Translations under genes and position numbers: made by a program
Shown here: piece by piece, positions 4,042 through 60,691 of the stretch
How the letters are laid out: every line of letters begins with the position of its first letter
Numbering within the stretch: position 1 is the stretch's first letter
Notes under the pieces: generated by a model
The model's input: the letters and a program-made list of their open reading frames with translations, nothing else
Databases searched by the model: none
Told to the model about the DNA's origin: nothing
DNA from: an uncultured Pseudomonadales bacterium
GTDB lineage: Bacteria; Patescibacteriota; Microgenomatia; UBA1400; PJMF01
Assembly: GCA_964521215.1 (NCBI GenBank)
Contig: CAZFRD010000001.1
Location: forward strand, 59,210 to 123,209
DNA length: 64,000 bases
Reading direction: 5' to 3'

Positions 4042-4056
4042 TACTTCTTTTCCGCA

Positions 4057-4446
4057 CTATTCGTTAGTGCGGTTTTTGTTTTGAGATAACTCTATGTTTT
4101 TTCTCCACCCACCAAGCATTTTCCCCACATCGTTTAATTTAAAAGCGATTTCCTCATATTGTTTATGAGACAGTAATTTAGCTTCCCACGCTATTGACAG
4201 TAAAAATTTAAGTGAATCAAGTAAAATAACACAGCCTGTTACCTTTTTATATTTTGCTTCCTTTTCAGTAAAATAAGATGCATATGTTTTTTCCAATAGA
4301 TCTAAAAAGGTATTTTCTATTCTGGCACCTATTGTGTAGCGTGCTCCTTTAGGCATATGAGGAACAAATCGCAACCAAATCAAATAAGCCTCTTTGAGAT
4401 GGTAAACAACAGAGTTAGTGCTATAAGGAGTAGTCATTTTAATCAT
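4057..4446 (-). CDS. avd: Avd-like accessory variability determinant (four-helix-bundle, 23S rRNA IVS-protein family)
   Basis: About 130 aa. Its layout resembles Bordetella bAvd and the IVS-protein family: YHLKEAYLIWLRFVPHMPKGARYTIGARIENTFLDLL...LLDSLKFLLSIAWEAKLL...IAFKLNDVGKMLGGWRKN. It is encoded on the strand opposite to TR and RT. Start is ambiguous: TTG at 4485, or ATG at 4446 or 4437. Confidence 0.55.
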   Translation of the reverse strand: MIKMTTPYSTNSVVYHLKEAYLIWLRFVPHMPKGARYTIGARIENTFLDLLEKTYASYFTEKEAKYKKVTGCVILLDSLKFLLSIAWEAKLLSHKQYEEIAFKLNDVGKMLGGWRKNIELSQNKNRTNE

Positions 4447-12949: not shown

Positions 12950-14008
12950 ATGAATTATGAAGAAATAGTAGCATTGTTGGGGAGCGAGGCAGAATCACTG
13001 CTCAATCATAGCTGTGAAAAAATTCCCAAAGAGATCATTACCTTGCCTGGTCCAGACAAAGTATTGACGGTGTTTCGAGATACTAATCGATCGAGTCGAG
13101 TGATTGCCAACCTACAAAGACTTTATCATCATGGACGATTGGCTGGCACTGGTTATTTGTCTATTTTTCCCGTTGATCAGGGCCTGGAGCACACGGCGGC
13201 TTATTCATTTTACCAACAACCGCAATATTTTGACCCCCAGGCAATTTTGGAGATGGCCGTGGCCGGAGCATGTAGCGGCGTGGCTAGTTCATTTGGTGTT
13301 TTATCACTGGTTGCAAAAAAATATCAAAATAGGATTCCATTTGTTGTAAAAATCAATCATAGCGAACACTTGACTCTTCCAGAGAAAACCGATCAACTAA
13401 TATTTTCCAGTGTAGATCAAGCAGCAGCAATTGGGGCGGTCGCAATTGGTGCGACTGTTTACTTTGGATCGGACAACTCACACAGACAAATAGAACAAGT
13501 AACTCAAATTTTTGAAAGAGCGCACCAACTAGGTTTGGCCACCATCCTCTGGTGTTACCCAAGAAACGATCAGTTCGTGGAAAATGGTCAATCATATGAG
13601 GATGCGGTGGATATTACCGCTCAAGCGATTCATCTGGGAGTAACAATGGGGGCAGACATTGTTAAACAGAAACTTCCCAGTCACCTTAGGGGATTTCAAG
13701 CCCTAGATTTTTCTAAGTACGACCCCCAAATGTACGATAGATTGTTAACCGATCACCCAATTGATTTGGTACGATACCAAGTGATCCATGCTTATGCTGG
13801 CAGAATTGGATTAATTAACTCTGGAGGCGAAAATTTAGGTGTAGATAATTTACGCTCTGCAGTGAGACAAGCAGTCATCAATAAACGGGCTGGAGGTCAT
13901 GGCTTAATTATGGGTAGAAAAGTCTTCAAAAGTAGTCGGGCAGAGGGTTTGCAACTGCTCAGAGCCGTGCAGGACGTATACTTAGAACCAAAAATCACAA
14001 TTGCTTGA
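12950..14008 (+). CDS. fbaB: class I fructose-bisphosphate aldolase (FbaB/DhnA type)
   Basis: Collinear with E. coli FbaB along the full length: ...LQRLYHHGRLAGTGYLSIFPVDQGLEHTAAYSF...IPFVVKINHSE...ADIVKQK...IDLVRYQ...GLINSGG...AVINKRAGGHGLIMGRKVFK.... Confidence 0.9.
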   Translation: MNYEEIVALLGSEAESLLNHSCEKIPKEIITLPGPDKVLTVFRDTNRSSRVIANLQRLYHHGRLAGTGYLSIFPVDQGLEHTAAYSFYQQPQYFDPQAILEMAVAGACSGVASSFGVLSLVAKKYQNRIPFVVKINHSEHLTLPEKTDQLIFSSVDQAAAIGAVAIGATVYFGSDNSHRQIEQVTQIFERAHQLGLATILWCYPRNDQFVENGQSYEDAVDITAQAIHLGVTMGADIVKQKLPSHLRGFQALDFSKYDPQMYDRLLTDHPIDLVRYQVIHAYAGRIGLINSGGENLGVDNLRSAVRQAVINKRAGGHGLIMGRKVFKSSRAEGLQLLRAVQDVYLEPKITIA

Positions 14009-14030
14009 TCTGCTGATGGAGTTGTTTACA

Positions 14031-15242
14031 CTAAACAGTAAATTGACCATCAGCGTATATTACTTTTGATGTTCCATCGGTCAGCGTGGCAGTAACGGTA
14101 CGATTGGTAGTGCTAATAATGTCGGTGTGCTCTGGCGAGTCGTTGAAACCAAGCTTTTCCCAATCAGCACTAGTTAAACTGGCTTTTTCGCCACGCAGGC
14201 AATCTTTGTAAGCCATACCAATCGCCACATGGGTGTTCCCTTCTGGACCTCCTAGGTTTTCATCATAGAGAGTTTCGGCCATAAAATGAGTAATTCTAGA
14301 TAGGCGCTTATCAGTCAAAGAAAATTCACCCAATTTATTAGCATTTGGACTTTTGATCATTGTCTGCAGCAATGAGTCGCCCTTAGTGGCGGTAGCTTTG
14401 GTGATAATTCCATCTTTAAAGTGAAGTTCAATGCCCTCGAGAATATTGCCGTAGCGGTAGAGTGGTTGATTTAAACGGATATGGCCTTGGGTGCCTCGCC
14501 AATCTGGACTAGTGAATAGCTCGAAGCTAGGTATATTTCGATCCGCGCCACCCTTCCATTGGCGGTTGGCGCCAAGCTGGATGTGCAAATCAACATCTGG
14601 ACCGGTAATGTGAACCTGTTCAATCGATAATGCGTTGAGCTTGTCACGCAGTTCTTGTTGTAACCGTTTCACCTTTCGCCACTCTTCAATGGGATCCGCC
14701 TGATCGAGAAAACAAGCTTTGATAATTTGTTGCCAGTAGTCTTCTAGACTCAAGCCAACGATTTTCGCTTTTGCCTCCACCCCCCAAAGTGCTAGGGTCC
14801 AGGTAAACTTGCCCTGAATTTCCTTATCCATCAACCAATCTCGGTAGGGTTTTTGAGTGTTGCGAGCCAACATAATGGAGTCAGGATCGATATCCTTCAA
14901 TTCTTCGGGATAGGGATCGGCCAAAATGGCAATTGAATGGTCGATTAAGTCGGCGCGAGTCTGCAGATGTTTTTCTGGGAAAAAAGTCAGTTGCTCTTTT
15001 GAAGCAATTGAATAGTAATCCTTGTCGAAACCAGTGGGTAGCAGGCGCATCAGCACATGTGCGCCAGCCTTGAGTAATGTGTTCTGCAAAGCTAGGGCTA
15101 GTGGTTTGGCCACATCGGGAACTAAACATTGAACCACCTCGCCTTCATTGATACCCTCAGTTTGGCCTAAGGCAAAATGCACCAATACAGCTGCATATTT
15201 ATCTAGTATTTCCGCTGGTGGAGAATAAATGCTATCAGACAT
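14031..15242 (-). CDS. M29-family aminopeptidase (AmpS/PepS-like)
   Basis: About 400 aa; likely start MSDSIYSPPAEILDKYAAVLV. The C-terminal half contains ...GANRQWKGGADRNIPSFELFTSP...GEFSLTDKRLSRITHFMAETLYDENLGGPEGNTHVAIG.... Confidence 0.65.
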   Translation of the reverse strand: MSDSIYSPPAEILDKYAAVLVHFALGQTEGINEGEVVQCLVPDVAKPLALALQNTLLKAGAHVLMRLLPTGFDKDYYSIASKEQLTFFPEKHLQTRADLIDHSIAILADPYPEELKDIDPDSIMLARNTQKPYRDWLMDKEIQGKFTWTLALWGVEAKAKIVGLSLEDYWQQIIKACFLDQADPIEEWRKVKRLQQELRDKLNALSIEQVHITGPDVDLHIQLGANRQWKGGADRNIPSFELFTSPDWRGTQGHIRLNQPLYRYGNILEGIELHFKDGIITKATATKGDSLLQTMIKSPNANKLGEFSLTDKRLSRITHFMAETLYDENLGGPEGNTHVAIGMAYKDCLRGEKASLTSADWEKLGFNDSPEHTDIISTTNRTVTATLTDGTSKVIYADGQFTV

Positions 15243-15302: not shown

Positions 15303-17423
15303 TTAATGACCCATAATCCGAGCGATAGACCTTGAGAATTTAAAAAGTGATAGCCTCATAGTTTTACCATTGATGATGAATATTCTTGGGAAAATAATTT
15401 TACTCGACGATGGGGCATATAATCTACCATTTATAGCCTGAAGTTTCGGTAAGCTAATTGAGGTGGCTGATCTTGCTATAAATGTCCCATTGATTAACTG
15501 AAGTTCTGGTAAATAGATTGTGGTAGCTGGGTCTGCATTAAAAAACGAACCGATTGACCGAAGTTGGGGCAAATTAATGCTAGTGGCCGAGTCCAGAGAG
15601 AAATATCCGCCGACTGATTGAAGCTGCGGTAACTCGATGCTCGTGACTGACCACAGCCAGAGGTTCTCGCCGACAGATTGAAGCTGCGGTAACTCGATGC
15701 TCTTGACTGACCTCAGCCAGAGGTTCTCGCCGACAGATTGAAGCTGCGGTAACTCGATGCTCGTGGCTAACTCTATCAAGAATTTCCCGCCGACTGATCT
15801 AAGTTGGGGTAATATAATTCTCGTGGTTGACCACAATTCGAAAAACCCAATAACTGAGGTTAGTTTATCATATTGAGAACTTTCCCGTGATTCGTCAATC
15901 AAGTTACCTTTTACCTCGATAAGGAGATTCTTCATTTCTGGCTTAAGCGAAGTGCAGTCAAGAGTAAGACCGGTAACTTTGGCGAGAGCTAAAAGAGTTT
16001 CTTTCTGAGTATTTTCGTTAAAAACTACCTTTCCAACAAATACAGACTTATCCTCTCCATCTAATAATTCGTCAATGGTTTTCTTCTCCCCATTATAGGT
16101 GATTACCTCATCATGTTCTATTTTGATATTATTGGTATCACCAAAACTTCTAATATTAACTTGTGGATTTAAACCCGAGAGTTGTTTGAGAATTCCCAAG
16201 AAATCAGCAAACCACGGTTCTTGACCAGTCAACAACTCATCGTTCTTCTTCTTCATTTGACTTAATTGATTTGAAATCGGTTGGTATTCTATTGTTAAAA
16301 GTGGCTTGCCAGTTCCATCTCTAACTGACCAAATCTCCACTCTACCCTCGATAATATTGTTAAGATAATGATCACTTTTTCCTACACAATGATTCATCCA
16401 AACTGACTCCTGTGCGAGTTGTTGGCGGTTGTTTAATCTAAATAATCTCAATTTACCATATGATGTGAGAAATTCGGGTTGTGATGTGGGGTTGGCTACC
16501 AACTCTTCCCTAAATTTTCTAATTGCTTGCTGAGTTCCTTGTCGATGTTTTTCGATAGTGGCAGCAATTCCCATCTCAGTGCTAATCAGCAATGTGTAGT
16601 TTTCAACAATGGCATCAGCTAGGGATTGCCAACCACCTAGAGGTATATCTCTATTGGCCAATTTTAAGTATCTGTGTACTTTTATTTTGACAACTTTGTA
16701 ATCTGGGTGTGCAATATCAATACCTCTTTCAGCTAATGAGTTTTCGAGTTCTGGGAGGTTAAGACTCTCATTATATTTGCTTTGCTCATCCGATAATTGT
16801 ATTGGCCCATTACTTTGTATGGGATTGTCTGAATTGGTCAGATCAAGGTATAGGTATGGGACAACTATTAAATCACCTCCGCCCGCAATGGTATGCAAAT
16901 CTCTTGCTATTTCAGGTTTAAAACCATATCTTCTCTCAAGAAGCCAATTGAGTGCCTTGTTGAATCCATGAAGTGATATTCTCTCGAAACCTTTCTTTTT
17001 TGCTTTTTTTATTATTTTCTCTATGTTGCCGGTTATTAAATCTGTTGGCGCCTTTCTGTCTTTAAACCTTTTTACTCCGAAGTATTTAAGATCCAATTCT
17101 GGTCCATGAGAAGTTTGAATTTCATCACAAACAAGAAAGCCTATGACATTGCCATCTACTAACCAGAGTTTATTAAATTCTGATGTTCCTGAGTTTAAGC
17201 AACGGACAATATCTCCCACCATTTGCAACGAAATCATAGTGGGAACAACATCATCCATATCCCTAAGTATTTGGGCAATGATTTCATTAGCATTTGAATG
17301 AAGTAGTTCAACAATTTTTTGATGGTCGCCAACAGGCACTATGTCATATGAAGGTTCAATATCCTCTTTCACAATTATAATGATACAAATTTTGATTTGA
17401 GAACACAAGGGGGGGGCTGTCAA
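15303..17423 (-). CDS. large surface-protein candidate: N-terminal PcfJ-like region (tentative) and C-terminal LRR-like 20-aa tandem repeats
   Basis: 706-aa ORF. The central region has WMNHCVGKSDHYLNNIIEGRVEIWSVRDGTGKPLLTIEY. The C-terminus has at least seven repeats of the form TSIELPQLQSVGENLWLRSV. The start is unclear: TTG at 17423, or in-frame ATGs further downstream. Confidence 0.5.
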   Translation of the reverse strand: MTAPPLCSQIKICIIIIVKEDIEPSYDIVPVGDHQKIVELLHSNANEIIAQILRDMDDVVPTMISLQMVGDIVRCLNSGTSEFNKLWLVDGNVIGFLVCDEIQTSHGPELDLKYFGVKRFKDRKAPTDLITGNIEKIIKKAKKKGFERISLHGFNKALNWLLERRYGFKPEIARDLHTIAGGGDLIVVPYLYLDLTNSDNPIQSNGPIQLSDEQSKYNESLNLPELENSLAERGIDIAHPDYKVVKIKVHRYLKLANRDIPLGGWQSLADAIVENYTLLISTEMGIAATIEKHRQGTQQAIRKFREELVANPTSQPEFLTSYGKLRLFRLNNRQQLAQESVWMNHCVGKSDHYLNNIIEGRVEIWSVRDGTGKPLLTIEYQPISNQLSQMKKKNDELLTGQEPWFADFLGILKQLSGLNPQVNIRSFGDTNNIKIEHDEVITYNGEKKTIDELLDGEDKSVFVGKVVFNENTQKETLLALAKVTGLTLDCTSLKPEMKNLLIEVKGNLIDESRESSQYDKLTSVIGFFELWSTTRIILPQLRSVGGKFLIELATSIELPQLQSVGENLWLRSVKSIELPQLQSVGENLWLWSVTSIELPQLQSVGGYFSLDSATSINLPQLRSIGSFFNADPATTIYLPELQLINGTFIARSATSISLPKLQAINGRLYAPSSSKIIFPRIFIINGKTMRLSLFKFSRSIARIMGH
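15421..15840 (-). repeat. seven in-register 60-nt tandem repeats (coding)
   Basis: Units begin at 15421, 15481, 15541, 15601, 15661, 15721 and 15781. Units 15661..15720 and 15721..15780 are about 90% identical; the outer units are more diverged. Confidence 0.85.
17409..17416 (-). repeat. homopolymeric G8/C8 tract at the 5' end of the LRR gene
   Basis: The sequence is ...caagggggggg ctgt... It lies 5-14 nt inside the TTG-started ORF, encoding Pro-Pro, or in the 5'UTR/promoter if a downstream ATG is used. Confidence 0.8.
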
Positions 17424-22770: not shown

Positions 22771-23927
22771 GGTGTTTCGGTTTGGGTAATATTGAGATAA
22801 CTGGGGTCTAGAGCAGAAACATAGCCAAGAAAGCCATCGTCACCAGAAAAGACATAAATCGGTTGCAAGTACATCTGGGGAGCAGTGGAGTCGTAGTAAC
22901 CCAAACTCACTTGACGAATAGTTGCTTGTTCTGACTTGATTGGGTGAGAAATATAGCCTTCCCCACCTTGGAGTATCTCCCAGGCTTGCTTAACGGGTCG
23001 AAGAGGATAGGTATGAATGACTGAGTAATCAATCGGATAATAATAGTAATCAAGTTTGAGTATGTTTTCAATATCTTTGATATTTCCTACTAGTGCATGA
23101 ATTACTCCTTGGCCATCTCGATCCGTATACATTTCGAATTGACCTTCGACAGGCGCCCGATTTAGATCCACGGTGACAAAGTCGGCGTCGGTGACTGCCA
23201 CGGCAGGTATTAACTCAGCCCCAACACTTTTAACAAAGGCAAAACTGCCCGATGCCGTTGCTATATCAGGCTGGAGATCGAGCGCTGATTGGAGAAAGGT
23301 TTTTACCTCACTAATCGCGTCAAATTTCGTCGGTAATTCGGAATCAAGCAACAGCTCCGGACGATTGGCAAAGTCGCTCTGATAACTAAAAACATGATCC
23401 TGAATGTCGTACTCAATCGTAGTAAAAAGTGGTTGAGTTCTTTGCCAGCGATAAGTTCGGGAGTCAATAATTTCTGGCTCAAACACAAAATTAAGCTTAG
23501 TGGCAAATTGTTTGGCTTTTTCTGCATCTAGCAAACCGGGCGAGTTTTTTGGCATGAAGAAGACCAGCGCCCTATCGGAAAATTCCGGTAATCTACCAGT
23601 GGGTGTTTCCAAGATGTATTTACTTGGTTTATCTTCGTCAGGGGTAGTGGGAAATACGGGTGGGGGTAAAATGCCAAAACCCACTGTGGGAGGCGGGGGC
23701 GGCTCTGGGTGAGTGGCAATCCAATAGCGGATAAAAGCTCCGGATGCAAACCAAAAAACCAAAAATACCACTAAACCAACCCCACCAAAGAGAACAAAGT
23801 TTTTGCTAACTGTTTTTGCTTGAGTGAGGGTAAAGACTGATTTTTCTTCTGCCATATCAGGACTGTATTTTTGGAGTACAGTATAATCATACCTGCAAGT
23901 ATTCGCTATGACTAGAAGCTGATGCAA
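22767..23927 (-). CDS. hypothetical membrane-anchored protein with Pro-rich linker
   Basis: 386-aa ORF with a single transmembrane helix, then a PEPPPPPTVGFGILPPPVFPTTP segment and a large C-terminal domain. Its stop overlaps the gltX start. Confidence 0.4.
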   Translation of the reverse strand: MHQLLVIANTCRYDYTVLQKYSPDMAEEKSVFTLTQAKTVSKNFVLFGGVGLVVFLVFWFASGAFIRYWIATHPEPPPPPTVGFGILPPPVFPTTPDEDKPSKYILETPTGRLPEFSDRALVFFMPKNSPGLLDAEKAKQFATKLNFVFEPEIIDSRTYRWQRTQPLFTTIEYDIQDHVFSYQSDFANRPELLLDSELPTKFDAISEVKTFLQSALDLQPDIATASGSFAFVKSVGAELIPAVAVTDADFVTVDLNRAPVEGQFEMYTDRDGQGVIHALVGNIKDIENILKLDYYYYPIDYSVIHTYPLRPVKQAWEILQGGEGYISHPIKSEQATIRQVSLGYYDSTAPQMYLQPIYVFSGDDGFLGYVSALDPSYLNITQTETP

Positions 23928-24560
23928 TTTCGTATTCTTACTACTTTTCCTGAATATTTTGTCAGTCCGTTAAAATCATCGATTATTGGTAGGGCTATGG
24001 TGCAAAAAATAATCAGTATCAATTTGTTGAATATTCGCGATTTTACTCAAGATAAACATCGAACCACTGATGATCGGCCATTTGGCGGTGGCGCGGGTAT
24101 GGTGATGAAAATTGAGCCAATTGATTTGGCTCTTGAGAGTATAAAAATTCCCGATAATCAGAGCAATTTACGTATCCTCTTGTCTGCCAGAGGGAAAAGA
24201 TTTACTCAATTAGAGGCAGTGCGTTTGGCGAAATTTCAATCAATCACCCTAATTTGTGGTCACTATGGTGATGTTGATCAGCGAGTGGCGGAACACTTGG
24301 CTGATGAAGAAATTTCGGTGGGCGATTTTGTGTTGACGGGTGGCGAGCCAGCAGCTTTAATCTTGATCGATGCCGTTACTCGCCTGCTACCTGGAGTCCT
24401 GGGTAATGAACTCAGCACCGATGAGGAAAGTCACACCATTCCTGGAAAACTCAGTCCGCCCAGTTATACCAGGCCGGCCGATTATCAAGGTTGGAAGGTG
24501 CCAGAGGAACTGTTATCAGGCGATCCAAAGTTGATTGGTAAATGGAAGAAAACTAGATAA
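23922..24560 (+). CDS. trmD: tRNA (guanine37-N1)-methyltransferase
   Basis: MQFRILTTFPEYF...RDFTQDKHRTTDDRPFGGGAGMVMKIEP.... Confidence 0.85.
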   Translation: MQFRILTTFPEYFVSPLKSSIIGRAMVQKIISINLLNIRDFTQDKHRTTDDRPFGGGAGMVMKIEPIDLALESIKIPDNQSNLRILLSARGKRFTQLEAVRLAKFQSITLICGHYGDVDQRVAEHLADEEISVGDFVLTGGEPAALILIDAVTRLLPGVLGNELSTDEESHTIPGKLSPPSYTRPADYQGWKVPEELLSGDPKLIGKWKKTR

Positions 24561-24563
24561 GGC

Positions 24564-24579
24564 ACCGTTCCAAAATGGT
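24564..24579 (+). terminator. post-trmD hairpin accgtt-ccaa-aatggt followed by a T-rich segment
   Basis: Stem and CCAA loop with a G-U wobble pair. The ccgttccaaaa motif is shared with the post-gene hairpin at 38209..38224. Confidence 0.35.
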
Positions 24580-24610
24580 TATTTGTCTAAAGATCACACT
24601 ACACAAAATA

Positions 24611-24678
24611 AAAACATAGTTTAGTGTAAAGCACAGCCCTGTCTGGAGTCATGCTCTACACTAAGCTATCAAATAAAA
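24611..24678. repeat. intergenic imperfect-palindromic element, copy 1
   Basis: aaaacatagTTTAGTGTAAAGCACagccctgtctggagtcATGCTctacactaagctATCAAATAAAA. A 13-bp stem (ttagtgtaaagca / tgctctacactaa) encloses a 17-nt loop. A second copy is at 38309..38380. Confidence 0.6.
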
Positions 24679-24838
24679 CTAAGTAGTCGTGTTGTTAAAA
24701 AAATAACTTCACTGCACGAAACGATTGGCTGATTTAAGGTAATTATTTTGTAACGGTCTCTTTAAATAGGAGACTATTCTGAGCACCCATTTACTGGTAG
24801 AGGGACCCTTGGTGGAAAACCGATTGGCGGCAGGATGG

Positions 24839-35706: not shown

Positions 35707-36601
35707 TGCCCTAACTGTGACTACCATCATCCCCACTTATAACGGCAGAAAACTGCTAGAAAAAAATCTGCCTTCCGTCCTACGTTCATTAAGAAATGGG
35801 GATGAGTTAATTATCATCGATGATGCCAGCCAAGACGAAAGTTGCAATTGGTTAAAATATGGTTTTCACCTCACTCAGCAACGCAAACCAAATCTTTCAG
35901 ATAAGCATGGTGAGTTTGAGTTGTTTCAGGGATTTGTAGTATTGAAACATAAGAGAATTGCAATTACTTTAATTGAAAATGCTCGCAACCTCAGGTTTGC
36001 CGCTAGTGTTAACCGAGCGGTTGGGTTAGCAACAAAACCCTTGCTCTTTTTGCTCAACTCGGATGCATCGGTTCAACCAGATACAGTTGATTGTTTGGTG
36101 AAGGCATATCAGAATAACGCTCAGCCCATTTTTGCTATTGGTTGCTTGGAATATGAAGGCGAAATCAACCAAGACCTAAAAAGTTTACCTACGGCAGGAA
36201 AAAACAAACTTTGGTTTGAACGTGGCTATTTTATGCACAGCAAAGCTAGCACCGATGCCTCGGGCGAAACGGTCTGGGCGAGTGGGGGGAGCGCGCTGTT
36301 CAACCGCGAAAGATGGCTAGCATTGGGGGGATTTGACGAGCGTTTCGCCCCGGCTTATTGGGAAGATATCGATCTTTCCTATCGTGCTAAAAAGAAAGGT
36401 TGGCAAGTCTTGTTTGAAAGATCGGCCGTTGTTTTTCATCAGCATGAATCAACTAACCAGCGTGTATTTTCAGAATCGGAAGTTCAACAACTCAGTTGGA
36501 AACACGCCGCCTACTTTGTGCAGAAACATGGCTCTTTTTGGCAAAAGCTAGCTTTTGTCTTATGGCAACCATATTGGTTATGGAAAAGATCTCGCCAATG
36601 A
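35699..36601 (+). CDS. family 2 glycosyltransferase
   Basis: VTTIIPTYNGRKLLEKNLPSV...LIIIDDASQDES...FLLNSDA...YWEDIDLSYRAKKKGW. Its stop overlaps the next gene's start within the bases ATGA. Confidence 0.7.
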   Translation: MSDALTVTTIIPTYNGRKLLEKNLPSVLRSLRNGDELIIIDDASQDESCNWLKYGFHLTQQRKPNLSDKHGEFELFQGFVVLKHKRIAITLIENARNLRFAASVNRAVGLATKPLLFLLNSDASVQPDTVDCLVKAYQNNAQPIFAIGCLEYEGEINQDLKSLPTAGKNKLWFERGYFMHSKASTDASGETVWASGGSALFNRERWLALGGFDERFAPAYWEDIDLSYRAKKKGWQVLFERSAVVFHQHESTNQRVFSESEVQQLSWKHAAYFVQKHGSFWQKLAFVLWQPYWLWKRSRQ

Positions 36602-38193
36602 AAAACAAGCAATCATTAATGTTATTGTTCTTAGTCTTGTTAGCTGGAATAATTAGATTTTGGCAACTTGGTACCATACCTTCGGGACCCAACTGGGATG
36701 AAGCTGCGATTGGCTACAATGGCTGGTCGGTTTGGCAGACCAGAAGAGACGAGTGGTTGGAAAAATTGCCAACTTCTTTTCGCTCTTTTGGAGACTACAA
36801 AGCTCCGTTAGCGATATATCTTAATGGTTTGTTTACCTCACTTTTTGGATTAGAAACATGGGTAATTAGATTGCCTTTTGCCTTATCGGGAGTAATTGGT
36901 GTGGTGGGATTTTATTTTCTACTCAAGTCAATTTTTAACTTTTCACCCAAAGGGAGTACTTATCTTTCTTCTGCCTGGTTAGCGTTACTGGGTACTGGAA
37001 TGCTCACGATCTCTCCGTGGCATATTTTATTTACTCGAGCTGGTTTTGAAAGCGGCCTAGCCCTAAGCGAAGTCGTCTGGGCCACAACTTTGTTTTTATC
37101 TTCATTACAGCTGAAAAAGAAAAACTGGCAATACTTTTGCTGGCAAATTACTGCTGGAATACTATTTGCCAGCACTTTTTATACTTACCACAGCGCCAAA
37201 GTGATGGTACCACTTTTTCTTTCACTTTTATTTTTATTGCTCAGCCGCAAAAAGTTGATTGCAATCAAACAGGTTGTGATTTTTTCAGCCGGCGTGCTCA
37301 TCTTAATCATTCCATTTTTAATCGACTCATTATTGGGTGAGGGTCTCACTCGGGCTAATGTCACTATCTTCGCTCATACCCAATCATTGGCTTATCTTCC
37401 ACTATTATTGATTAAAAATTTGCTGGCTCACCTCAGTCTCTCGTTTCTCTTATTGGGTAAAGCTGACTCAATTCGTCACTCAATTGGTACGATGGGAGTA
37501 TTGTTTCCCACCACTGCATTTTTATTCGCCTTAGGATTGGTGGCAAGATACAAAAAAAACTATATATTTATTTGGTCTTTCGCCACAATTTGGGTTGTAG
37601 CGGGATTGGCACCCGCCATCATTGGGATTGAAGTCCCTCATCCCAATCGTGCCTTACTCGCCCTGCCAGGTTTCTTACTTTTTGCCTTACTGGGAATTGA
37701 CTTGATAACTGAAAACATCTCAAAACATACACGTCAACCCGCCAAGTACCTCAAAATATTTATTGCTAGTTTGGTCATTATTAACATCATTCAAGCTAGT
37801 TATTTTTTATCTCAATATTTTGGCGTTTATGCCAAGCAATCTAGCCCATATTTTCAAGATGGTTACCGGGAAATGTTTACTGAAGTTTGGTCTTACTACG
37901 ATGGTAAAGATGGTCGGCATTCTGTTGATCAAATTGTTATCACGAGCGAATATGGTCAACCGTATATTTACGCTCTTTTAACCAGGAAAATTTCCACTTT
38001 TCAGTACCACAATGGCGCATTGATCAACTTTATTTTCCCCGATGTAGTCCAGTTAAGCGATCTTGATCGGCCCAATGCTTTGATTGTAGCTGGTGAAAAA
38101 AGTGATCTAGTTAATCGCACGCAAGCTTTTAAAGTGATATATACCAAAGACGGTAAACCAAGATTTTGGTTGTTTGATACCGACCAACTTTGA
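36598..38193 (+). CDS. GT-C glycosyltransferase, GT39/PMT-ArnT-like (paralog 1 of 5)
   Basis: IIRFWQLGTIPSGPNWDEAAIGYNGWSV...FGDYKAPLAIYLNGLFTSLFGLETWVIRLPFALSGV, followed by about 11 transmembrane helices. Confidence 0.75.
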   Translation: MKNKQSLMLLFLVLLAGIIRFWQLGTIPSGPNWDEAAIGYNGWSVWQTRRDEWLEKLPTSFRSFGDYKAPLAIYLNGLFTSLFGLETWVIRLPFALSGVIGVVGFYFLLKSIFNFSPKGSTYLSSAWLALLGTGMLTISPWHILFTRAGFESGLALSEVVWATTLFLSSLQLKKKNWQYFCWQITAGILFASTFYTYHSAKVMVPLFLSLLFLLLSRKKLIAIKQVVIFSAGVLILIIPFLIDSLLGEGLTRANVTIFAHTQSLAYLPLLLIKNLLAHLSLSFLLLGKADSIRHSIGTMGVLFPTTAFLFALGLVARYKKNYIFIWSFATIWVVAGLAPAIIGIEVPHPNRALLALPGFLLFALLGIDLITENISKHTRQPAKYLKIFIASLVIINIIQASYFLSQYFGVYAKQSSPYFQDGYREMFTEVWSYYDGKDGRHSVDQIVITSEYGQPYIYALLTRKISTFQYHNGALINFIFPDVVQLSDLDRPNALIVAGEKSDLVNRTQAFKVIYTKDGKPRFWLFDTDQL

Positions 38194-38233
38194 TGTTTCA
38201 AAGTCGGAGCCGTTCCAAAACGATCTTTTTTTT
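38180..38233 (+). terminator. hairpin spanning the stop codon plus a ccgttccaaaacg hairpin and T8 tract
   Basis: ccgac-caa-ctttga-tgtt-tcaaag-tcgg, then gagccgttccaaaacgatc followed by tttttttt. Confidence 0.5.
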
Positions 38234-38308
38234 GATTCTCGATGAGAATATTTTACCCAAAAATCACAACTGTATTTTTATTAACATTTGAGAAACACTC
38301 TACTAATA

Positions 38309-38380
38309 AAAAATATGGTTTAGTGTAAAGCACGTCTCCAGACGGGGCCATGCTTTAGTGTAAACCCCCATCAAATAAAA
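38309..38380. repeat. intergenic imperfect-palindromic element, copy 2
   Basis: aaaatatggTTTAGTGTAAAGCACgtctccagacggggccATGCTttagtgtaaacccccATCAAATAAAA. The central 16 nt are the reverse complement of the copy-1 centre, while the outer flanks are in direct orientation. Confidence 0.6.
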
Positions 38381-38513
38381 AGCACGTAGCTTGGGGTAGC
38401 AATTAGCGATACTTCATAAGTCAGTTCAATAGTTTGCAGAACCATTAGTCTTTTTCTAGGATTTCTTTCTAATCAAACAAAGAAAATAACCGTTGGGAAT
38501 GGTATCCAAAAAG

Positions 38514-40058
38514 TTATTCGATCAAAAAATCACTACCACTTTCACCTTGATAAATATACCCAGTCGTATCTAGAGTAGCATCAGAGTTGCCGATCGTGCC
38601 AATAATGACTTGAAAGGGCACTCGACCAAAACGATGACTTTGTTGTTGGTATTGCGAATCGAGCTTAAAAAGAGCTACCTTGGAGTAAGCTAATGAATGC
38701 CGACAGGCAGGGAAGATATCCCAAGCGCAGATCTCTCGATTGTTACAGATATCAACCACCGTGGTGGCTGTTTCATCAATGGTTAAAGTAGAATATTGTT
38801 TAACGCCAAAAAACACATTATTGATAAAATCATCATCGTGGAAAATAAAGCGAATATTTTGCCCAGGTGATTTGGCTTGAATAAACTCAATTGTACTTTG
38901 TAACTCTGCCAAATCGTTATAGCTATGCCATTGACTAATATAGATTCCCGAAGAAAAAAACATCAAGCCAAATATGCTGAGAATGACAAACTTGGAGCGA
39001 GTGGCTGACATTAAACTCGCCAGAAAGACAAAAGGTAAAAAGAAAAGGGTGCTGAAAAAATAATCCAACTTATCTCCCCTGAAAACTCTGAGCATTATAA
39101 AAATACTGAAAAAATAGAACAAGATTATTATAAAAGAAAGATTCTTAGTTTTCCGATAATGTGCAATCAGGGAAAAGATTCCACCAAAGTAAATAGAGAG
39201 ACCAAAAATTGAATAAAGAGTCTCTTTGCCGAATAATACTCGGTCAAAAAATGCCGGAAAGTAGGTGAAAACATATGTTGGCTTAGAGATTCGTTCAAAA
39301 TACCTCGAATGTTCTTGAGTAAAGTAGTTCAATATCGCTCGGGAGTTGGAAAAATTAGAAGTAATTTCCGCATAGAAATATGGCAGTAAGATAAGAGACA
39401 TTATGATTATGCCACTCGCCCAAAATAGTAGTAGTCGCTGAGAAAAATTGTTTTTGATAGAGTAAATGAAACAAAAAGCAAGCAGGGGTAGTAAGACAGC
39501 AGCTTGATAATGAAACTGAAAAGCGACAATAAATGAAAAACAAGCTATTGGAATAAACCACAGCTGATGGTATTTAACTACTCGGATAGATGAATAGACA
39601 AGAAGCAAAGAGAAAAAAGGAATCATGTTGGGATTCCAGGCCGTCGTACCATACTGCAGGGGAATTGGTGCCACGATATATAACAAACTAGATAATGTTG
39701 CTAACTTGATACCAAATAATTCTTTAATAATCAGAAATAATAAGACCGGACTTAAGGCTTCAACTATGGTCACAACCCACTTCATGACCAGAGGATCATT
39801 GTTGGTGAATAGCGAAAAGATCACATGAATTTGGTAATAAAGTGGAGGCAAATAGAAATTGCCTATGCCCACTTTTGGCCCATAGTCAACTATGATCTGA
39901 TCAAATTTTATTCGTTGACTCATAAGCCATGAGTCTCGAGCAACATCTTGTCCAAACGAAATATGGGTAGAGGAGAAAATCAGGCGGGTGCTCAGACTGA
40001 GAATCAAGATGAGAAGGACTACTAGTGTATTACTGGTCTTGAGCTTGCTATGATACAT
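38514..40058 (-). CDS. polytopic membrane protein, GT-C-like candidate (unnamed family with D-x-x-R-D...WNP motifs)
   Basis: FGQDVARDSWLM...TAWNPNMIPFFSLLL with about 12 transmembrane helices. Related to 51171..52883 and 52904..54319. It is the only minus-strand gene inside the GT39 array. Confidence 0.45.
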   Translation of the reverse strand: MYHSKLKTSNTLVVLLILILSLSTRLIFSSTHISFGQDVARDSWLMSQRIKFDQIIVDYGPKVGIGNFYLPPLYYQIHVIFSLFTNNDPLVMKWVVTIVEALSPVLLFLIIKELFGIKLATLSSLLYIVAPIPLQYGTTAWNPNMIPFFSLLLVYSSIRVVKYHQLWFIPIACFSFIVAFQFHYQAAVLLPLLAFCFIYSIKNNFSQRLLLFWASGIIIMSLILLPYFYAEITSNFSNSRAILNYFTQEHSRYFERISKPTYVFTYFPAFFDRVLFGKETLYSIFGLSIYFGGIFSLIAHYRKTKNLSFIIILFYFFSIFIMLRVFRGDKLDYFFSTLFFLPFVFLASLMSATRSKFVILSIFGLMFFSSGIYISQWHSYNDLAELQSTIEFIQAKSPGQNIRFIFHDDDFINNVFFGVKQYSTLTIDETATTVVDICNNREICAWDIFPACRHSLAYSKVALFKLDSQYQQQSHRFGRVPFQVIIGTIGNSDATLDTTGYIYQGESGSDFLIE

Positions 40059-56731: not shown

Positions 56732-56982
56732 GATCGCTTCATATTTTGAAACGATTTTACATAGTGGTCTAACAGATTACGAATCATCCGTTGATAAGAT
56801 CCACCCAACTTTTCCGCCTCGTCCTTAAAAAAGCTCAGCGTCTTTTGATCCAAATTGATTGTAATTTTGATTGCTGGGGGTCGCAAAATAAGTTCTTCTG
56901 GAGGGGGTAAAAAATCAGGTACCCTAACCATCTTACCGAAGGTGCCTTCAAATACTTGATTATTTTGTTGTATTCTTTTCAT
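56728..56982 (-). CDS. brnA: BrnA-like antitoxin (CopG/RHH-like, DUF4415 type)
   Basis: Small protein immediately downstream of brnT and overlapping it. The C-terminus ...LDQKTLSFFKDEAEKLGGSYQRMIRNLLDHYV is typical of BrnA. Confidence 0.55.
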   Translation of the reverse strand: MKRIQQNNQVFEGTFGKMVRVPDFLPPPEELILRPPAIKITINLDQKTLSFFKDEAEKLGGSYQRMIRNLLDHYVKSFQNMKRS

Positions 56983-57262
56983 ATAATTTTCTTTCTTTTC
57001 TCCAAAACCCAGCTCCAATGATTCTCAGTATCCGATTTCTAATCACAAATCTTACTGTACAAACATCATCATCGACTTGCCCAATACAATACCAACGTTG
57101 TTCAACGTCAGTCGAATGACTGACATCTGCATAAATAAGTCTTTTTTTGTCATAGAATGCTCGTATTGCGTCTTTAAACCTAATGAAGTGTTTTTCATAA
57201 TTACGTTGATCTTTATTTGCATCCCACTCAAATTCGAGTATCTGAATATATGGTACTTTCAT
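56960..57262 (-). CDS. brnT: BrnT toxin (DUF497 ribonuclease family)
   Basis: FEWDANKDQRNYEKHFIRFKDAIRAFYDKKRLIYADVSHSTDVEQRWYCIGQVDDDVCTVRFVIRNRILRIIGAGFWRKERKLYE. Confidence 0.7.
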   Translation of the reverse strand: MKVPYIQILEFEWDANKDQRNYEKHFIRFKDAIRAFYDKKRLIYADVSHSTDVEQRWYCIGQVDDDVCTVRFVIRNRILRIIGAGFWRKERKLYEKNTTK

Positions 57263-57265
57263 ATG

Positions 57266-57287
57266 TATAAAATGTCAATATTTTATA
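57266..57287. promoter_or_regulatory. perfect 8-bp inverted repeat, tataaaat-gtcaat-attttata, 4 nt upstream of the brnT start codon
   Basis: Located in the divergent promoter region between brnT and the 57475 gene. Candidate BrnA (RHH) operator. Confidence 0.4.
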
Positions 57288-57474
57288 TGAATTTGAAATG
57301 TTAGTTTAAACCTTGATGCTTGCACTAACCGTAATTAGCTTAAGAAGCTTTTGTAGCATTCAACTAGTGGAATATTTGATTATTATATGTGACAATGGAC
57401 AACATCGAGATTGATTTATATATAAATTACTAGTATAATAATTTATTGATATATCGATTATTTAATCAAATACT

Positions 57475-57780
57475 ATGTCAACCGATTTCACTTCTTCAAA
57501 TCCGCCACAGACCGTTATCCAGGCTCTATGGTCGGCAGACTTAAACGCATTAGATTTGGCAAAACACAAAAAATACATCGTTCATCAAGTTCTACAGTTT
57601 GGAGATTTACAAGCAATAGCCTGGCTATTTTCAGTTTATGGAAAAACGATAGTTAAAAACCTGTTTGTTGCTCAAGCAGAAAAAGTCTATACGCCTCGAT
57701 CATTTAATTATATAACCAAATATGTTTTGGGTCTTGTTCCAGATTCTTTAAATCAAAAGTTGTATGTTTCAAATATTTAA
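57475..57780 (+). CDS. hypothetical small protein, possible antitoxin partner of the downstream AbiEii-like gene
   Basis: 101-aa ORF overlapping the next gene's start by 17 nt. No family recognised. Confidence 0.3.
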   Translation: MSTDFTSSNPPQTVIQALWSADLNALDLAKHKKYIVHQVLQFGDLQAIAWLFSVYGKTIVKNLFVAQAEKVYTPRSFNYITKYVLGLVPDSLNQKLYVSNI

Positions 57781-58417
57781 ACAGGCAATTACCGATCAAC
57801 ACGAACAAGTCATGTTCCAACTTGCCAACTTGTTTGACGGCCAAATACTCATTGGGGGAACAGGTTTAGCCTTACAAATAGGGCATCGCAAATCGGAGGA
57901 TTTAGATTATGTAATTAAACAACCAGTTGCCGAAAATATCACTTCGTTGCTTACTATAGCTACGGGTGCAAGTCAATGGCAACACCAGATGCAAAATTCT
58001 CAACAATATACTGGTTTTTGCTCTGGAATCAAAGTGACTTTTTTTCACGATAATGTTCAGTTTCTGCATCCAACTCACGAATTCGCTGGAAACCAAATTG
58101 CCGATATATCAGATATCTTTTCCTCAAAACTATTCACCATTAGTAGAAGAGCGGTATGGAGAGACTATGTTGATATAGCAGTACTTCTCGATAAAGAACT
58201 ACTATCACTGAAGGATGGAATTGTAGATGCAAAAATTCGCCACCAGGTTGATGAAAAATGGATTCTTGAGCCTCTGACCTATTTTGAGGATATAACCTAC
58301 GCTCCAATTGATTATTTGGAAAAGTCATATTCAGATGCGGAAATCAGAAATATTTTGGAGACTGAAGCTATGCAATACACTGATTTAAGATTATCATTAG
58401 CAAGTTTTGAGACTTAA
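57764..58417 (+). CDS. nucleotidyltransferase, AbiEii/AbiGii-like (short form)
   Basis: LIGGTGLALQIGHRKSEDLDYV resembles the GGTAL...R.SEDLDF motif of DUF1814/AbiEii. Confidence 0.45.
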   Translation: MFQIFKQAITDQHEQVMFQLANLFDGQILIGGTGLALQIGHRKSEDLDYVIKQPVAENITSLLTIATGASQWQHQMQNSQQYTGFCSGIKVTFFHDNVQFLHPTHEFAGNQIADISDIFSSKLFTISRRAVWRDYVDIAVLLDKELLSLKDGIVDAKIRHQVDEKWILEPLTYFEDITYAPIDYLEKSYSDAEIRNILETEAMQYTDLRLSLASFET

Positions 58418-58421
58418 GCGT

Positions 58422-59174
58422 ATGTTGAATACCACCAAAACTACCAGTGCTGTAATTCATATCTTCCATGTTTCCAAGCTTTTTCGTAAGCAAAAACAGA
58501 AGACGTTTAAGGAGTTTTTACCGGCATTGTTTGGCGGTCAGTCAACGAGTGAGACTTTTTGGGCGCTCAGCGATATTGATCTGGAAATTAAAAAAGGGGA
58601 GACGTTTGGCATTATTGGTCCCAATGGTAGCGGCAAAAGCACCTTGCTCAAACTGATTGCAGGGGTGACCAAGCCCACCAAAGGCTCAATAAAGGTCAAT
58701 GGTCAGATCGCACCTCTAATTGAGTTGGGCGCCGGTTTTCATCCGGAATTGACAGGTAGAGAGAATGTAGTCTTGAATGGGGTGATCTTGGGGATGAAGC
58801 GGGTTGAGGTGGAAAAGAAATTTAAAGATATTGTGGATTTTGCCGAATTGTGGGAATTTATTGATCAACCCGTCAAACACTACTCGTCAGGCATGTACTT
58901 GCGTCTCGCATTTGCGGTGGCGGTGCATACCGATCCCGAAATTTTGTTGGTGGATGAAATCTTGGCCGTTGGTGATGCAGCGTTTCAAGCCAAGTGTATA
59001 GCAAAAATGAATGAGTTTCGTGAGCAGGGGAGGACGATTATTATCGTGACTCATGCTTTAGATACAGTCAAAAGTTTTTGTGGGCGGGCGGCTTTCTTGC
59101 TAAAAGGCTCACTGCAACAAATTGGCGAAGCATCTCAAGTAGTAGAAGCCTACAAAACACATGGTCAGCCTTAG
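58422..59174 (+). CDS. wzt: ABC exporter ATP-binding protein (Wzt/TagH-like)
   Basis: Walker A GPNGSGKSTLLK, signature YSSGMYLRLAFAVA, Walker B ILLVDE, and H-loop VTHAL. Confidence 0.8.
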   Translation: MLNTTKTTSAVIHIFHVSKLFRKQKQKTFKEFLPALFGGQSTSETFWALSDIDLEIKKGETFGIIGPNGSGKSTLLKLIAGVTKPTKGSIKVNGQIAPLIELGAGFHPELTGRENVVLNGVILGMKRVEVEKKFKDIVDFAELWEFIDQPVKHYSSGMYLRLAFAVAVHTDPEILLVDEILAVGDAAFQAKCIAKMNEFREQGRTIIIVTHALDTVKSFCGRAAFLLKGSLQQIGEASQVVEAYKTHGQP

Positions 59175-59220
59175 CCACACCATTGCAAAAATAAGTATTT
59201 TGTTTTAGAATTACTACCAT

Positions 59221-59877
59221 ATGAGTAGTATTACGCAAATGAAAGACACTTCAATCGTTTCCCAAAAGCCCTACCTAACCAGGCCGGAGTTGGGTTTGTT
59301 GTGGAGCAAAACTGGTCGTAATTTAGATAAATCAATCTTGAGTGCACTCAATAAAAAGGAGTTAATTGCACTAAAAAAAGGCATGTACGTATTTGCTAAT
59401 AGAATAAATTTGAATGACCAAAATCATACAGAGTTTATTGCCAATTCGCTTTGTTATCCTTCATATTTATCTTTAGAATACATTCTCCAATTAGAGAAAG
59501 TTATACCAGAATCGATTTTCGTGATGACGTCAATTACTGTTGGAAAAACCATCTCCTACACCAACGCCCTAGGTTCTTTTCAGTATCGATCAATTAAGCC
59601 AACCTTATTTATTGGATTCGCCAGGACTGACTACCTACAAGACTACCAAATCAAGCGGGCGACGTTAGCCAAAGCCCTATTCGATTGGCTCTACTTACAG
59701 CCTTTTCCCCGATCATTGAGAGGTAAACTCCGGGTATTACGTGATGCTCGCCTGAATTACACCAGTATTACTCACTCAGATCTGGAAGAGCTAAAAAAGT
59801 ATATCAAGACTTCCCAGTCGTTTAAAATGACCCAATTGTTGCAAATCTTAGAAGAGGAGATAAATCATGTTGATTAA
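59221..59877 (+). CDS. abiEi: AbiEi-like antitoxin (type IV TA)
   Basis: The N-terminal domain has ...LTRPELGLLW...LIALKKGMYVF.... It overlaps the downstream AbiEii gene by 11 nt. Confidence 0.55.
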   Translation: MSSITQMKDTSIVSQKPYLTRPELGLLWSKTGRNLDKSILSALNKKELIALKKGMYVFANRINLNDQNHTEFIANSLCYPSYLSLEYILQLEKVIPESIFVMTSITVGKTISYTNALGSFQYRSIKPTLFIGFARTDYLQDYQIKRATLAKALFDWLYLQPFPRSLRGKLRVLRDARLNYTSITHSDLEELKKYIKTSQSFKMTQLLQILEEEINHVD

Positions 59878-60691
59878 TGCCTTACAACAGGTGGTTGACG
59901 ATAATCGTCACCAGCCTTTTTTATACCAAAGAAACCTGCTCAAAGAAACTATTCAGGCTTACATTCTAAATTTTGTCTACTCCTCAGCCTATGCTGAGCG
60001 TTTCCTTTTCAAGGGTGGCACCTGTCTCAGGTTTTGCTTCGATCTACCTCGCTTATCAGAAGATCTGGATTTTGATGTAGTAGACCTAGTTGATGATGAC
60101 TATCAGAACTTAGTCGATGATTTAGCTGAATATATTCTTAAAAAACTTCGGTATGAACAAATGAACAGCTCGATCAAAGGTAAAAATAGAATCATTTACT
60201 TACAATTTCCCGTTTTAGCCAAGCTTGGTCTAAGTTCTGATTTGGCGACTCATTCAGACCAAGTTTTACACGTCAGGATTGACTTAGCGCCAATCAGGGG
60301 TCAGGGATTTACTCAAGAAGTGTCTCTGCAATCCACACCTGATTTTGCCTTTTTAATTCGTCGCTATGGTCTAGCTGATTTGTTTGCTGGTAAAGTAGCG
60401 GCTGTTTTGACCAGAGAAACTCTGGAAGCGGGGGTGATAGAGCCTAGATTTAAAGGTAGGGACTTTTTTGATATTTGGTGGCTACAATCAAAAGGAGTGG
60501 AATGGAATGAAAAATATCTAGAGTCGCTGGTTGGTGTGACTTCGCCAGCTGAGATCAAATCAGCTCTAAACGCCAAAATTATACAGGCCGCTGAAAAACA
60601 GCAGCTAATCAAGCAAGACCTACTACCATTCTTCTCCGAGCCCCAATTTGTGATCGATTTCGTCACCCATCTCGACCAGTTGCGGTTTTGA
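59867..60691 (+). CDS. abiEii: AbiEii/AbiGii nucleotidyltransferase toxin (DUF1814)
   Basis: FLFKGGTCLRFCFDLPRLSEDLDFDV. Confidence 0.75.
   Translation: MLINALQQVVDDNRHQPFLYQRNLLKETIQAYILNFVYSSAYAERFLFKGGTCLRFCFDLPRLSEDLDFDVVDLVDDDYQNLVDDLAEYILKKLRYEQMNSSIKGKNRIIYLQFPVLAKLGLSSDLATHSDQVLHVRIDLAPIRGQGFTQEVSLQSTPDFAFLIRRYGLADLFAGKVAAVLTRETLEAGVIEPRFKGRDFFDIWWLQSKGVEWNEKYLESLVGVTSPAEIKSALNAKIIQAAEKQQLIKQDLLPFFSEPQFVIDFVTHLDQLRF

Follow-up and report, generated by a model that had tools for sequence, protein, structure and literature searches.

A 64-kb window (the whole stretch of 64,000 nucleotides analysed here, from contig CAZFRD010000001.1 of assembly GCA_964521215.1) carries two full copies of a palindromic element, each located between convergent genes: copy 1 between trmD and rmlD, and copy 2 between two glycosyltransferase genes of the GT39 (PMT_2) type. 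The element is a nested imperfect palindrome of approximately 110 nt, and the stretch at 38309-38380 is the core of copy 2. Comparison of the two copies revealed that the loop of copy 2 is inverted relative to that of copy 1, while the sequences around it stay in direct orientation. The micro-inversion is real; it affects a palindromic intergenic repeat, not described before, of a bacterium of the Candidate Phyla Radiation (CPR), and a known mutational mechanism probably accounts for it. The parts of the two copies are listed below.

24585..24697: full element of copy 1, with outer inverted repeat CACACTAC / GTAGTCGTG, A-rich tracts and core
24616..24669: palindromic core of copy 1, a nearly perfect hairpin, ATAG-TTTA[GTG]TAAAGCAC-[loop AGCCCTGTCTGGAGTC]-ATGCTCTA[CAC]TAAG-CTAT
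24620-24634: left arm of copy 1, TTTAGTGTAAAGCAC
24635-24650: loop of copy 1, AGCCCTGTCTGGAGTC
24651-24665: right arm of copy 1, ATGCTCTACACTAAG
38317..38366: palindromic core of copy 2, GG-TTTA[GTG]TAAAGCA-C-[16-nt loop]-A-TGCTTTA[GTG]TAAA-CC
38319-38333: left arm of copy 2, TTTAGTGTAAAGCAC
38334-38349: loop of copy 2, GTCTCCAGACGGGGCC
38350-38364: right arm of copy 2, ATGCTTTAGTGTAAA

The core follows the skeleton GGTTTA-[GTG or CAC]-TAAAGCA-[16-nt loop]-TGCTTTA-[GTG or CAC]-TAAACC and is bordered on either side by A-rich tracts, to which young copies add a short outer inverted repeat. Since the skeleton is palindromic and reads alike on both strands, only the two 3-nt bubbles and the loop report the orientation of a copy. 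The core of copy 2 corresponds to inverted repeat I1 (23-nt arms, 74% complementary). The same pair of copies appears as family D5 in the repeat-family listing of the window, and an nhmmer profile matched copy 1 at 24586-24697 with 85.6 bits.

Analysis of the loops revealed that, once the copy-1 loop is reverse-complemented (GACTCCAGACAGGGCT), it agrees in register with the copy-2 loop at 13 of 16 positions, against 7 matches at best when the two loops are compared in direct orientation. Thirteen matches were attained by 4 of 200,000 composition-preserving shuffles (p ~2e-5). The segment CTCCAGACRGGGC has a single occurrence on each strand, 24636-24648 on the minus and 38336-38348 on the plus strand. 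Outside the loop the relationship is direct: the left arms match at 15/15 positions directly vs 12/15 inverted, the right flanks give 20 matches directly vs 4 inverted, and the left-flank alignment scores are 9 and 2, respectively. Identity between the two copies outside the arms is ~71-75%. An inter-arm segment that is the reverse complement of its counterpart, between collinear flanks, is the signature of template switching, and this is what was found here. An initial annotation, made from the sequence alone, had described the copy-2 centre as inverted at 13 of 15 positions with the outer sequences unchanged; both observations are borne out, with 16 positions in the comparison. The sequence that it gave for the right arm of copy 2 is likewise present: this arm contains TGCTTTAGTGTAAAC, so that TTTAGTGTAAA occurs twice in direct orientation in copy 2, starting at 38319 and 38354.

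Folding and terminator-like features

Folding of copy 1 as RNA gave -28.5 kcal/mol (z = -6.1) on the plus strand and -30.1 kcal/mol (z = -3.4) on the minus strand, with the outer stem present in the minimum-free-energy fold. For copy 2 the plus strand gave -20.9 kcal/mol (z = -2.1), the fold including an internal loop of 3x3 (GUG/GUG); on the minus strand z was -0.96 and the hairpin is not the minimum-free-energy structure. The hairpin of copy 2 is the weaker one because GTG faces GTG. The arms of copy 1 are 15 nt long with 2 mismatches, and those of copy 2 consist of a 7-bp perfect inner part and a 5-6 bp outer part with the 3x3 mismatch between them. As DNA the two copies fold with -9.8 and -9.3 kcal/mol, respectively, and the flip of the loop has no obvious effect on the hairpin. 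A consensus fold of six copies showed conserved stems and no covariation (covariation term +0.95). The lack of covariation indicates that the likeness of the copies reflects common descent and not selection on RNA structure.

The hairpin is followed on the minus strand by T-runs, CUAUGUUUUUAUUUUG at copy 1 and CCAUAUUUUUUAUUAG at copy 2. The plus-strand flanks are A-rich, and a T-run thus follows the hairpin on the minus strand only. Judged by this arrangement, the element has the appearance of an intrinsic terminator that would act in one direction, on the gene of the T-run strand; the stems of both copies are AT-rich. Searches with Rfam 15 gave no match at the gathering threshold across the 64 kb, and in the two intergenic regions only chance-level matches with E >0.5 were found. 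A search for tRNA and tmRNA found none.

Filled and empty sites among relatives

The genes and other features next to the two copies are as follows.

23922..24560, plus strand: trmD, convergent neighbour upstream of copy 1 (258 bits with the NCBIfam TrmD equivalog)
24564..24584, plus strand: M motif ACCGTTCCAAAATGGTTATTT, 3 nt past the trmD stop codon
24839..25732, minus strand: rmlD (Pfam RmlD_sub_bind), which closes a minus-strand rml operon; convergent neighbour downstream of copy 1
36496..38193, plus strand: GT39 (PMT_2) gene, upstream neighbour of copy 2
38210..38233, plus strand: M motif, a small hairpin with T-run CCGTTCCAAAACGATCTTTTTTTT, just past the stop of the plus-strand GT39 gene
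38271..38469: 197-nt intergenic cassette containing copy 2, homologous over its full length to the intergenic region of relative L090, in opposite orientation relative to the convergent genes
38478..38503, minus strand: M-like motif ACCATTCCCAACGGTTATTTTCTTTG, past the stop of the minus-strand GT39 gene, with 21/25 matches to the M motif of copy 1
38514..40058, minus strand: GT39 (PMT_2) gene, with gene order kept in all relatives examined

Copy 2 and both GT39 genes sit within a large cell-envelope glycan cluster. Exact window proteins were found in the Logan assemblies SRR8893623, SRR8893624 and SRR9038830; the exact 297-aa RmlD protein is present in Logan assemblies. Among species-representative genomes the best TrmD relatives are Patescibacteria/Microgenomates-type metagenome-assembled genomes (MAGs) with <=67% identity, and the relatives of the RuvB protein at a third locus, on contig L086 (see below), are Patescibacteria. 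The host is a Microgenomates-like member of the Patescibacteria (CPR). The arm pattern of the element gave 0 matches when 185,579 species were scanned, each represented by one genome; both the species and the element are therefore absent from that set.

Comparison of orthologous loci revealed filled and empty sites. At the GT39/GT39 locus the element is present in the window and in L001, L002, L089 and L090. Between the genes, SRR8893623 and SRR9038830 have essentially the same sequence as the window, with one 1-nt indel in the latter, and L089 (95% protein identity) is 98% identical there with unchanged orientation. In L091 and L093-L097 (59-63% protein identity) the same convergent genes abut with a gap of 1-2 nt and no element. 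The trmD/rmlD locus is filled in the window and in L099 (84%, from the sample of L090), where a 111-nt gap holds an eroded copy; relative to copy 1 its flanks match in opposite orientation, and its loop has the same direction relative to the genes. The site is empty in L098 (88% TrmD identity, from the sample of L089), with a gap of 15 nt, and in L042 (a 67% relative), where trmD and rmlD overlap by 19 nt. The third locus lies after ruvB and is filled in L086, a JGI metagenome contig, and in L101, a 99%-identical locus from another sample. There the element stands directly after the ruvB stop, reading TTTAGTGTAAAGCA, TAACCTTGTCTGGAGTCA and TGCTTTAGTGTAAAC in succession, and combines a copy-1-oriented loop with a copy-2-type right arm. 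L100 (88% RuvB identity) has a 48-nt gap after ruvB and no element.

Scanning of JGI metagenomes with a relaxed arm pattern gave 3 matches, with L086 as the sole true copy. The match in L087 was set aside, since it lies in coding sequence and looks like chance. That in L088 was left as probably unrelated: it belongs to an 84-bp tandem repeat in an organism of 29% G+C, with 3.7 copies of the unit at 2049-2356, each containing ATAGCTTTAGTGTAAAGCAT and matching the skeleton with 1-4 mismatches. The shared 14-mer and part of the skeleton may reflect chance or a distant relative of the palindrome. An nhmmer profile built from five copies found no further copy in 1.3 Mb of fetched loci, including more distant CPR, and the loci of distant CPR and other MAGs (<=67% identity) retrieved by a TrmD-based search were all element-free.

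Overall, the element is shown to be a dispersed intergenic repeat at three unrelated loci, with site occupancy varying among relatives. The three unrelated loci, the position immediately past stop codons, the empty sites and the variable orientation together point to a once-mobile repeat similar to MITEs (miniature transposable elements with inverted repeats) or ERIC. At all three loci the ancestral state is an intergenic gap of 0-48 nt. Copy 1 and the L086 copy, apparently the younger ones, have good long hairpins and an outer stem of 8-10 bp. The copies at the GT39 locus are older, being common to the 84% relative, and are decaying; the outer inverted repeat is absent in copy 2 and in L090.

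Analysis of L090 (84% identity) revealed a second and larger inversion. Its gene order is the same, and its entire 194-nt intergenic region is inverted relative to the genes: the cassettes align plus strand to plus strand (local alignment score 186), while the gene ends align between the plus strand of the window and the minus strand of L090. An assembly artefact was rejected as the cause, since no long inverted repeats flank the cassette. At 38472-38487 the window retains, in inverted form, a remnant of the plus-strand GT39 gene's 3' end (ATTTTCTTTGTTTGAT vs ATTTTGGTTGTTTGAT, with 2-3 of 1000 shuffles as good; inverted repeat I3), and the source sequence of this remnant abuts the same cassette end in L090. 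The remnant makes an independent insertion less likely than a local inversion in which part of the gene end was carried along. The left region (38194-38270) and the right region (38470-38513) as cassette-flanking inverted repeats were not significant overall (30/500 shuffles); significance is confined to the 16-nt remnant.

The initial annotation had taken copy 2 to mark a rearrangement hotspot, as it lies where a GT39 array is interrupted by the minus-strand gene. For the gene this is not supported. The convergent GT39 order is kept in relatives down to 59-63% identity, in which the two genes abut, so the minus-strand gene is old and the element was inserted later; a recent rearrangement creating that gene is rejected by the conserved synteny. 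For the intergenic DNA alone the suggestion stands in a weaker form, given the insertion and the inverted cassette of the 84% relative. The GT39 cassette was inverted in one lineage after insertion of the element.

The smaller M motif recurs beside both copies. Its shared form, CCGTTCCAAAAYGG with a T-run behind it, stands a few bases downstream of the stop codons of three genes, in the sense of each, and CCGTTCCAAAA of the motif at 38210..38233 is exactly identical to 24566-24576. From its sequence, the M motif may be a miniature terminator travelling with the palindromic element.

Further observations concern the same intergenic regions and genes. Approximately 140 nt between trmD and rmlD (24698-24838) have no counterpart in relatives or elsewhere in the window, and GGAGACTATTCTGAG at ~24768-24782 resembles, by eye, the last rmlD codons of L099. 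The plus-strand GT39 gene has a mechanical open reading frame (ORF) of 565 aa with a TTG start, whose overlap with the preceding glycosyltransferase gene amounts to 105 nt (36496-36601); in the assemblies gene callers choose a later start, giving 531 aa.

Orientation states and origin of the flip

The orientation of bubbles and loop was compared among copies, with A for the loop as in copy 1 and B for the loop as in copy 2. The states are given in the order bubble, loop, bubble.

As sequenced, copy 1: GTG, A, CAC
As sequenced, copy 2 and L089: GTG, B, GTG
As sequenced, L090: as copy 2, with the whole cassette inverted relative to the genes
As sequenced, L086 and L101: GTG, A, GTG
Referenced to the flanks, copy 1: GTG, A, CAC
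Referenced to the flanks, copy 2, L089 and L090: GTG, B, GTG
Referenced to the flanks, L086 and L101 (reverse strand): CAC, B, CAC
Referenced to the flanks, L099 (reverse strand): GTG, B, eroded

Each asymmetric segment between complementary arms has flipped independently at least once. In the frame defined by the flanks, loop B is found in three loci or lineages and loop A in copy 1 only; tentatively, copy 1 and not copy 2 is thus the derived, flipped copy.

The flip is probably an inversion of the inter-arm spacer by replication template switching, in a mobile, terminator-like palindrome that is no programmed switch. Template switching between short inverted repeats is documented to invert spacers and to homogenise arms (PMC8604942, PMC8794818, PMC5453318). 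During replication the polymerase would switch template between the inverted-repeat arms and then switch back, which would leave the intervening segment inverted; the same template switching would raise the complementarity of the arms. Such homogenisation fits the GTG/CAC pair of copy 1 as compared with GTG/GTG in copy 2 and elsewhere. Recombination between palindromic arms had been among the mechanisms put forward in the initial annotation. Of that suggestion, inversion mediated by the arms is what best explains the flip, while exchange between the two copies is kept only as a rival. In the best explanation the flip is an evolutionary accident of palindromic DNA.

The likeness to published template-switch and quasi-palindrome mutations (PMC8604942, PMC8794818, PMC5453318) is close. 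In these, as here, a segment between short inverted repeats becomes its reverse complement with collinear flanks, nearby multi-base differences make the arms more complementary (copy 1) or less so (copy 2), and the events are reversible and recurrent. The published loops are mostly of 2-8 nt, whereas the loop here has 16 nt, and the arms were >9 bp in a yeast survey of such switches (PMC8604942). A further difference is that the comparison here is between paralogous repeat copies with nested levels (3-nt bubbles, loop, 197-nt cassette) and not between orthologues; the mechanism is inferred.

Several points weigh against this explanation. Linking the observed states requires several nested events, and the order and number of flips are not reconstructable from five independent copies of ~3 lineages. 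Copy-2-type inner arms have just 7 bp of perfect complementarity to mediate a flip. The orientation calls for L086 and L099 are weak, with 28-nt flank alignments scoring 10-13 vs a background of 4-8, and L089 with L098 and L090 with L099 (the same sample in each case) were assumed, not shown, to be one genome. Mobility is deduced from filled and empty sites alone: no target-site duplication was recognisable, the ends of the element are not fixable from five copies, and no transposase or related insertion sequence was found among the ORFs of at least 100 aa scanned in the window (a few overlapping ORFs were left out). As to the terminator, a consensus scan called neither copy, the loops being >8 nt. 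Finally, contigs carrying trmD end at ...AAAACATAG (24619) in both SRR8893623 and SRR8893624, and both orientations of copy 1 could co-exist, with a flip rate far above that of a rare replication error.

These contig ends deserve closer description. Position 24620 is the first base that differs between the copy-1 hairpin and its reverse complement (T vs C), and a contig from the rmlD side stops at 24699, inside the A7 run at 24697-24703. The ends at 24619/24620 and 24698/24699 (L003, L004, L005) suggest population sequence variants. In a graph of k = 31 a contig would end where its last k-mer has two successors, so the break at 24620 fits a second variant. A flip of the loop only would break the contig 15 nt later, and a shared repeat would allow it to run ~30 nt into the element. 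The break therefore fits a flip of the whole hairpin, or a precise deletion of it, segregating in populations. Either event would leave the flanking T-runs in place and hence the direction of the terminator unchanged.

An unlikely alternative is that the flip and flop forms are made during movement through a fold-back intermediate, as in parvoviruses, and that copy 1 is a fresh flop insertion. Copy 1 is absent from the closest relative (the 15-nt gap of L098), its hairpin and outer stem are the best preserved, as in a young insertion, and the combination of bubble and loop orientations differs in every independent insertion; hairpin-primed replication is the established model for parvovirus flip/flop forms (mentioned in PMC8794818). 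Against it, no transposase, replication-initiator or other mobility gene was found among the window ORFs scanned, the element ends and target duplications are undefined, the copies are too few to test whether orientation is randomised at each insertion, and the inversion of the GT39 cassette looks local and not like a re-insertion.

Improbable to a similar degree is ectopic gene conversion or recombination between oppositely oriented copies, with both exchange points within the palindromic arms. Its predicted outcome is indistinguishable from the one observed, and the lineage holds both chromosomal orientations (L090 vs the window, and L099 vs the window). However, both copies in the window share one orientation, arms of 15 nt (7 nt perfect in copy 2) are below the length usual for RecA-type exchange, and with the identity outside the arms as low as given above no recent conversion tract is visible.

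It is very doubtful that the arms are two sites for a dimeric DNA-binding protein, each G-TTTA-NNN-TAAA-C and in itself a small palindrome whose central 3 nt may be either GTG or CAC, with the 35-bp spacing and the conserved loop as part of the complex. The motif TTTAGTGTAAA occurs exactly four times in the 64 kb, two of them direct in copy 2; the direct arrangement is kept in another organism (L086, L101), and a solitary site is present at 14025-14035. With one mismatch allowed, however, the 4 matches compare with 2.6 expected and are not significant (27/100 shuffles). Moreover, the sites lie at the 3' ends of convergent genes and not at promoters, they decay in older copies (L090, L099), and the element is missing from orthologous sites of relatives, which is unexpected for an operator. 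The solitary site is as follows.

14025..14035, minus strand: solitary TTTAGTGTAAA (TTTACACTAAA on the plus strand), in the loop of an 8-bp hairpin GCTGATGG..CCATCAGC (14006-14050)

The genes on its two sides, DeoC-like and M29 peptidase, are convergent, and the site overlaps the TAG stop codon of the one on the minus strand; it may be a relic arm or chance.

We give equally little weight to the extended proposal that the palindrome is a CPR mobile element propagated via a fold-back (hairpin-primed or hairpin-resolved) intermediate, taking the flip or the flop form in each copying round, with copy 1 still flipping in living populations; such ongoing flipping would explain why contigs break at the first asymmetric base in two samples.

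Least probable of all is a programmed site-specific switch, of the 16-nt loop or the 197-nt cassette, that toggles which convergent gene receives a one-way terminator: the cassette is inverted between sister lineages, is bracketed in the window by short inverted repeats (38163-38178 and 38472-38487) and has a size within that of known invertible promoter segments, and the copy-1 contig breaks hint at heterogeneity, but the ORF scan of the window found no recombinase, invertase or transposase, L090 has no bracketing repeats, flipping the hairpin alone keeps the T-runs and so the terminator direction, and 16 nt is too short for a synaptic complex. Known invertible switches are much larger than a segment of 16 nt. 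Copy 2 has a single orientation in the window, in SRR8893623, in SRR9038830 and in the 95% relative, and it is probably not a switch. The site-specific invertible loop proposed in the initial annotation is therefore not upheld. That annotation had held that copies fixed in one orientation among relatives would speak against its proposal; relatives were found to differ in orientation, but as fixed evolutionary differences.

Relation to known repeats and significance

The flip of a loop in a dispersed palindrome has parallels in several known systems. Hairpin-bounded, flip-flop small inversions occur in plastid spacers (PMC6824564). As far as these are described in that source, which lists Kelchner and Wendel 1996, the likeness lies in a stem-loop found where genes end (3'), in many cases convergent ones, whose loop flips repeatedly without altering hairpin stability, so that one event mimics many substitutions; the present case differs in being on a bacterial (CPR) chromosome and in a dispersed repeat with presence and absence, not in a fixed orthologous spacer.

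Among bacterial repeats, ERIC/IRU, RUP, Correia and REP/BIME elements (PMC10969869, PMC3184786, PMC3733652) are likewise imperfect palindromes of ~100 nt after coding regions, preferred between convergent or co-directional genes, found in either orientation at filled and empty sites, and potential terminators or RNA-stabilising hairpins. Dispersed copies with filled and empty sites, as in MITEs, were found here at three unrelated loci. For the present element, in contrast to those families, neither terminal inverted repeats nor a target duplication, and neither a tag tetranucleotide nor a partner transposase, are shown; it has two copies per 64 kb and no sequence similarity to any described family (no Rfam match, and no match among the representative genomes). 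Assignment to REP/REPIN was rejected. A REP is a G+C-rich palindrome of 20-40 bp, one end of which immediately adjoins an unpaired tag, GTAG or CGTC (PMC3733652). Here it is ATAG, ATGG or GTGG that adjoins the hairpin, whose stems are A+T-rich, and GTAG is found only ~20 nt off in the right flank; no RAYT (Y1 transposase) domain was found in the window ORFs scanned. An integron attC site (RYYYAAC ... GTTRRRY) was rejected as well, since the element reads GGTTTA ... TAAACC on both strands, and there is no integrase in the window. A narrow literature search found no palindromic repeat family described in CPR/Patescibacteria.

Comparison was extended to systems in which two orientations are the rule. 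Terminal palindromes of parvoviruses and poxviruses also exist as two inverted-complement hairpin forms that differ only at asymmetric positions, but they are products of hairpin transfer at linear replicon ends, whereas the present element is chromosome-internal with no replication-initiator nuclease nearby. Invertons such as fimS or the hin segment share with it the occurrence of DNA between inverted repeats in both orientations. Invertons are at least ~100 bp long, depend on a recombinase of their own and occur in both states within one culture; none of these properties is seen in the 16-nt loop, and none is shown for the 197-nt cassette. No new kind of switch is revealed.

The window contains other features apart from the palindromic element. 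A candidate diversity-generating retroelement occupies 1549-5417: in the ORF at 1549-3549 (plus strand) a 136-nt segment (3405-3540) recurs at 3906-4041 (85% identity), the two being candidate variable and template repeats, adjoined by a bAvd-like ORF at 4057-4485 (minus strand) and a reverse-transcriptase fragment at 4839-5417. Five to six tandem copies of a 60-nt unit occur at 15490-15849 in a 706-aa ORF (15303-17423, minus strand) with no Pfam match. At 56960-60691 a BrnT toxin, DUF6922 and two AbiEii nucleotidyltransferases (of the toxin-antitoxin/abortive-infection type) are interleaved with an ABC transporter.

The flip between the two copies constitutes a clean bacterial example of a multi-base change in one event, which an alignment would show as ~10 substitutions. 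Such flips can mislead alignment, strain typing and estimates of divergence in intergenic DNA. This study also documents a dispersed palindromic repeat in a Patescibacteria lineage with very compact genomes. If the hairpin is a one-way terminator, gain, loss and inversion of the element would change which of the two convergent genes is insulated.

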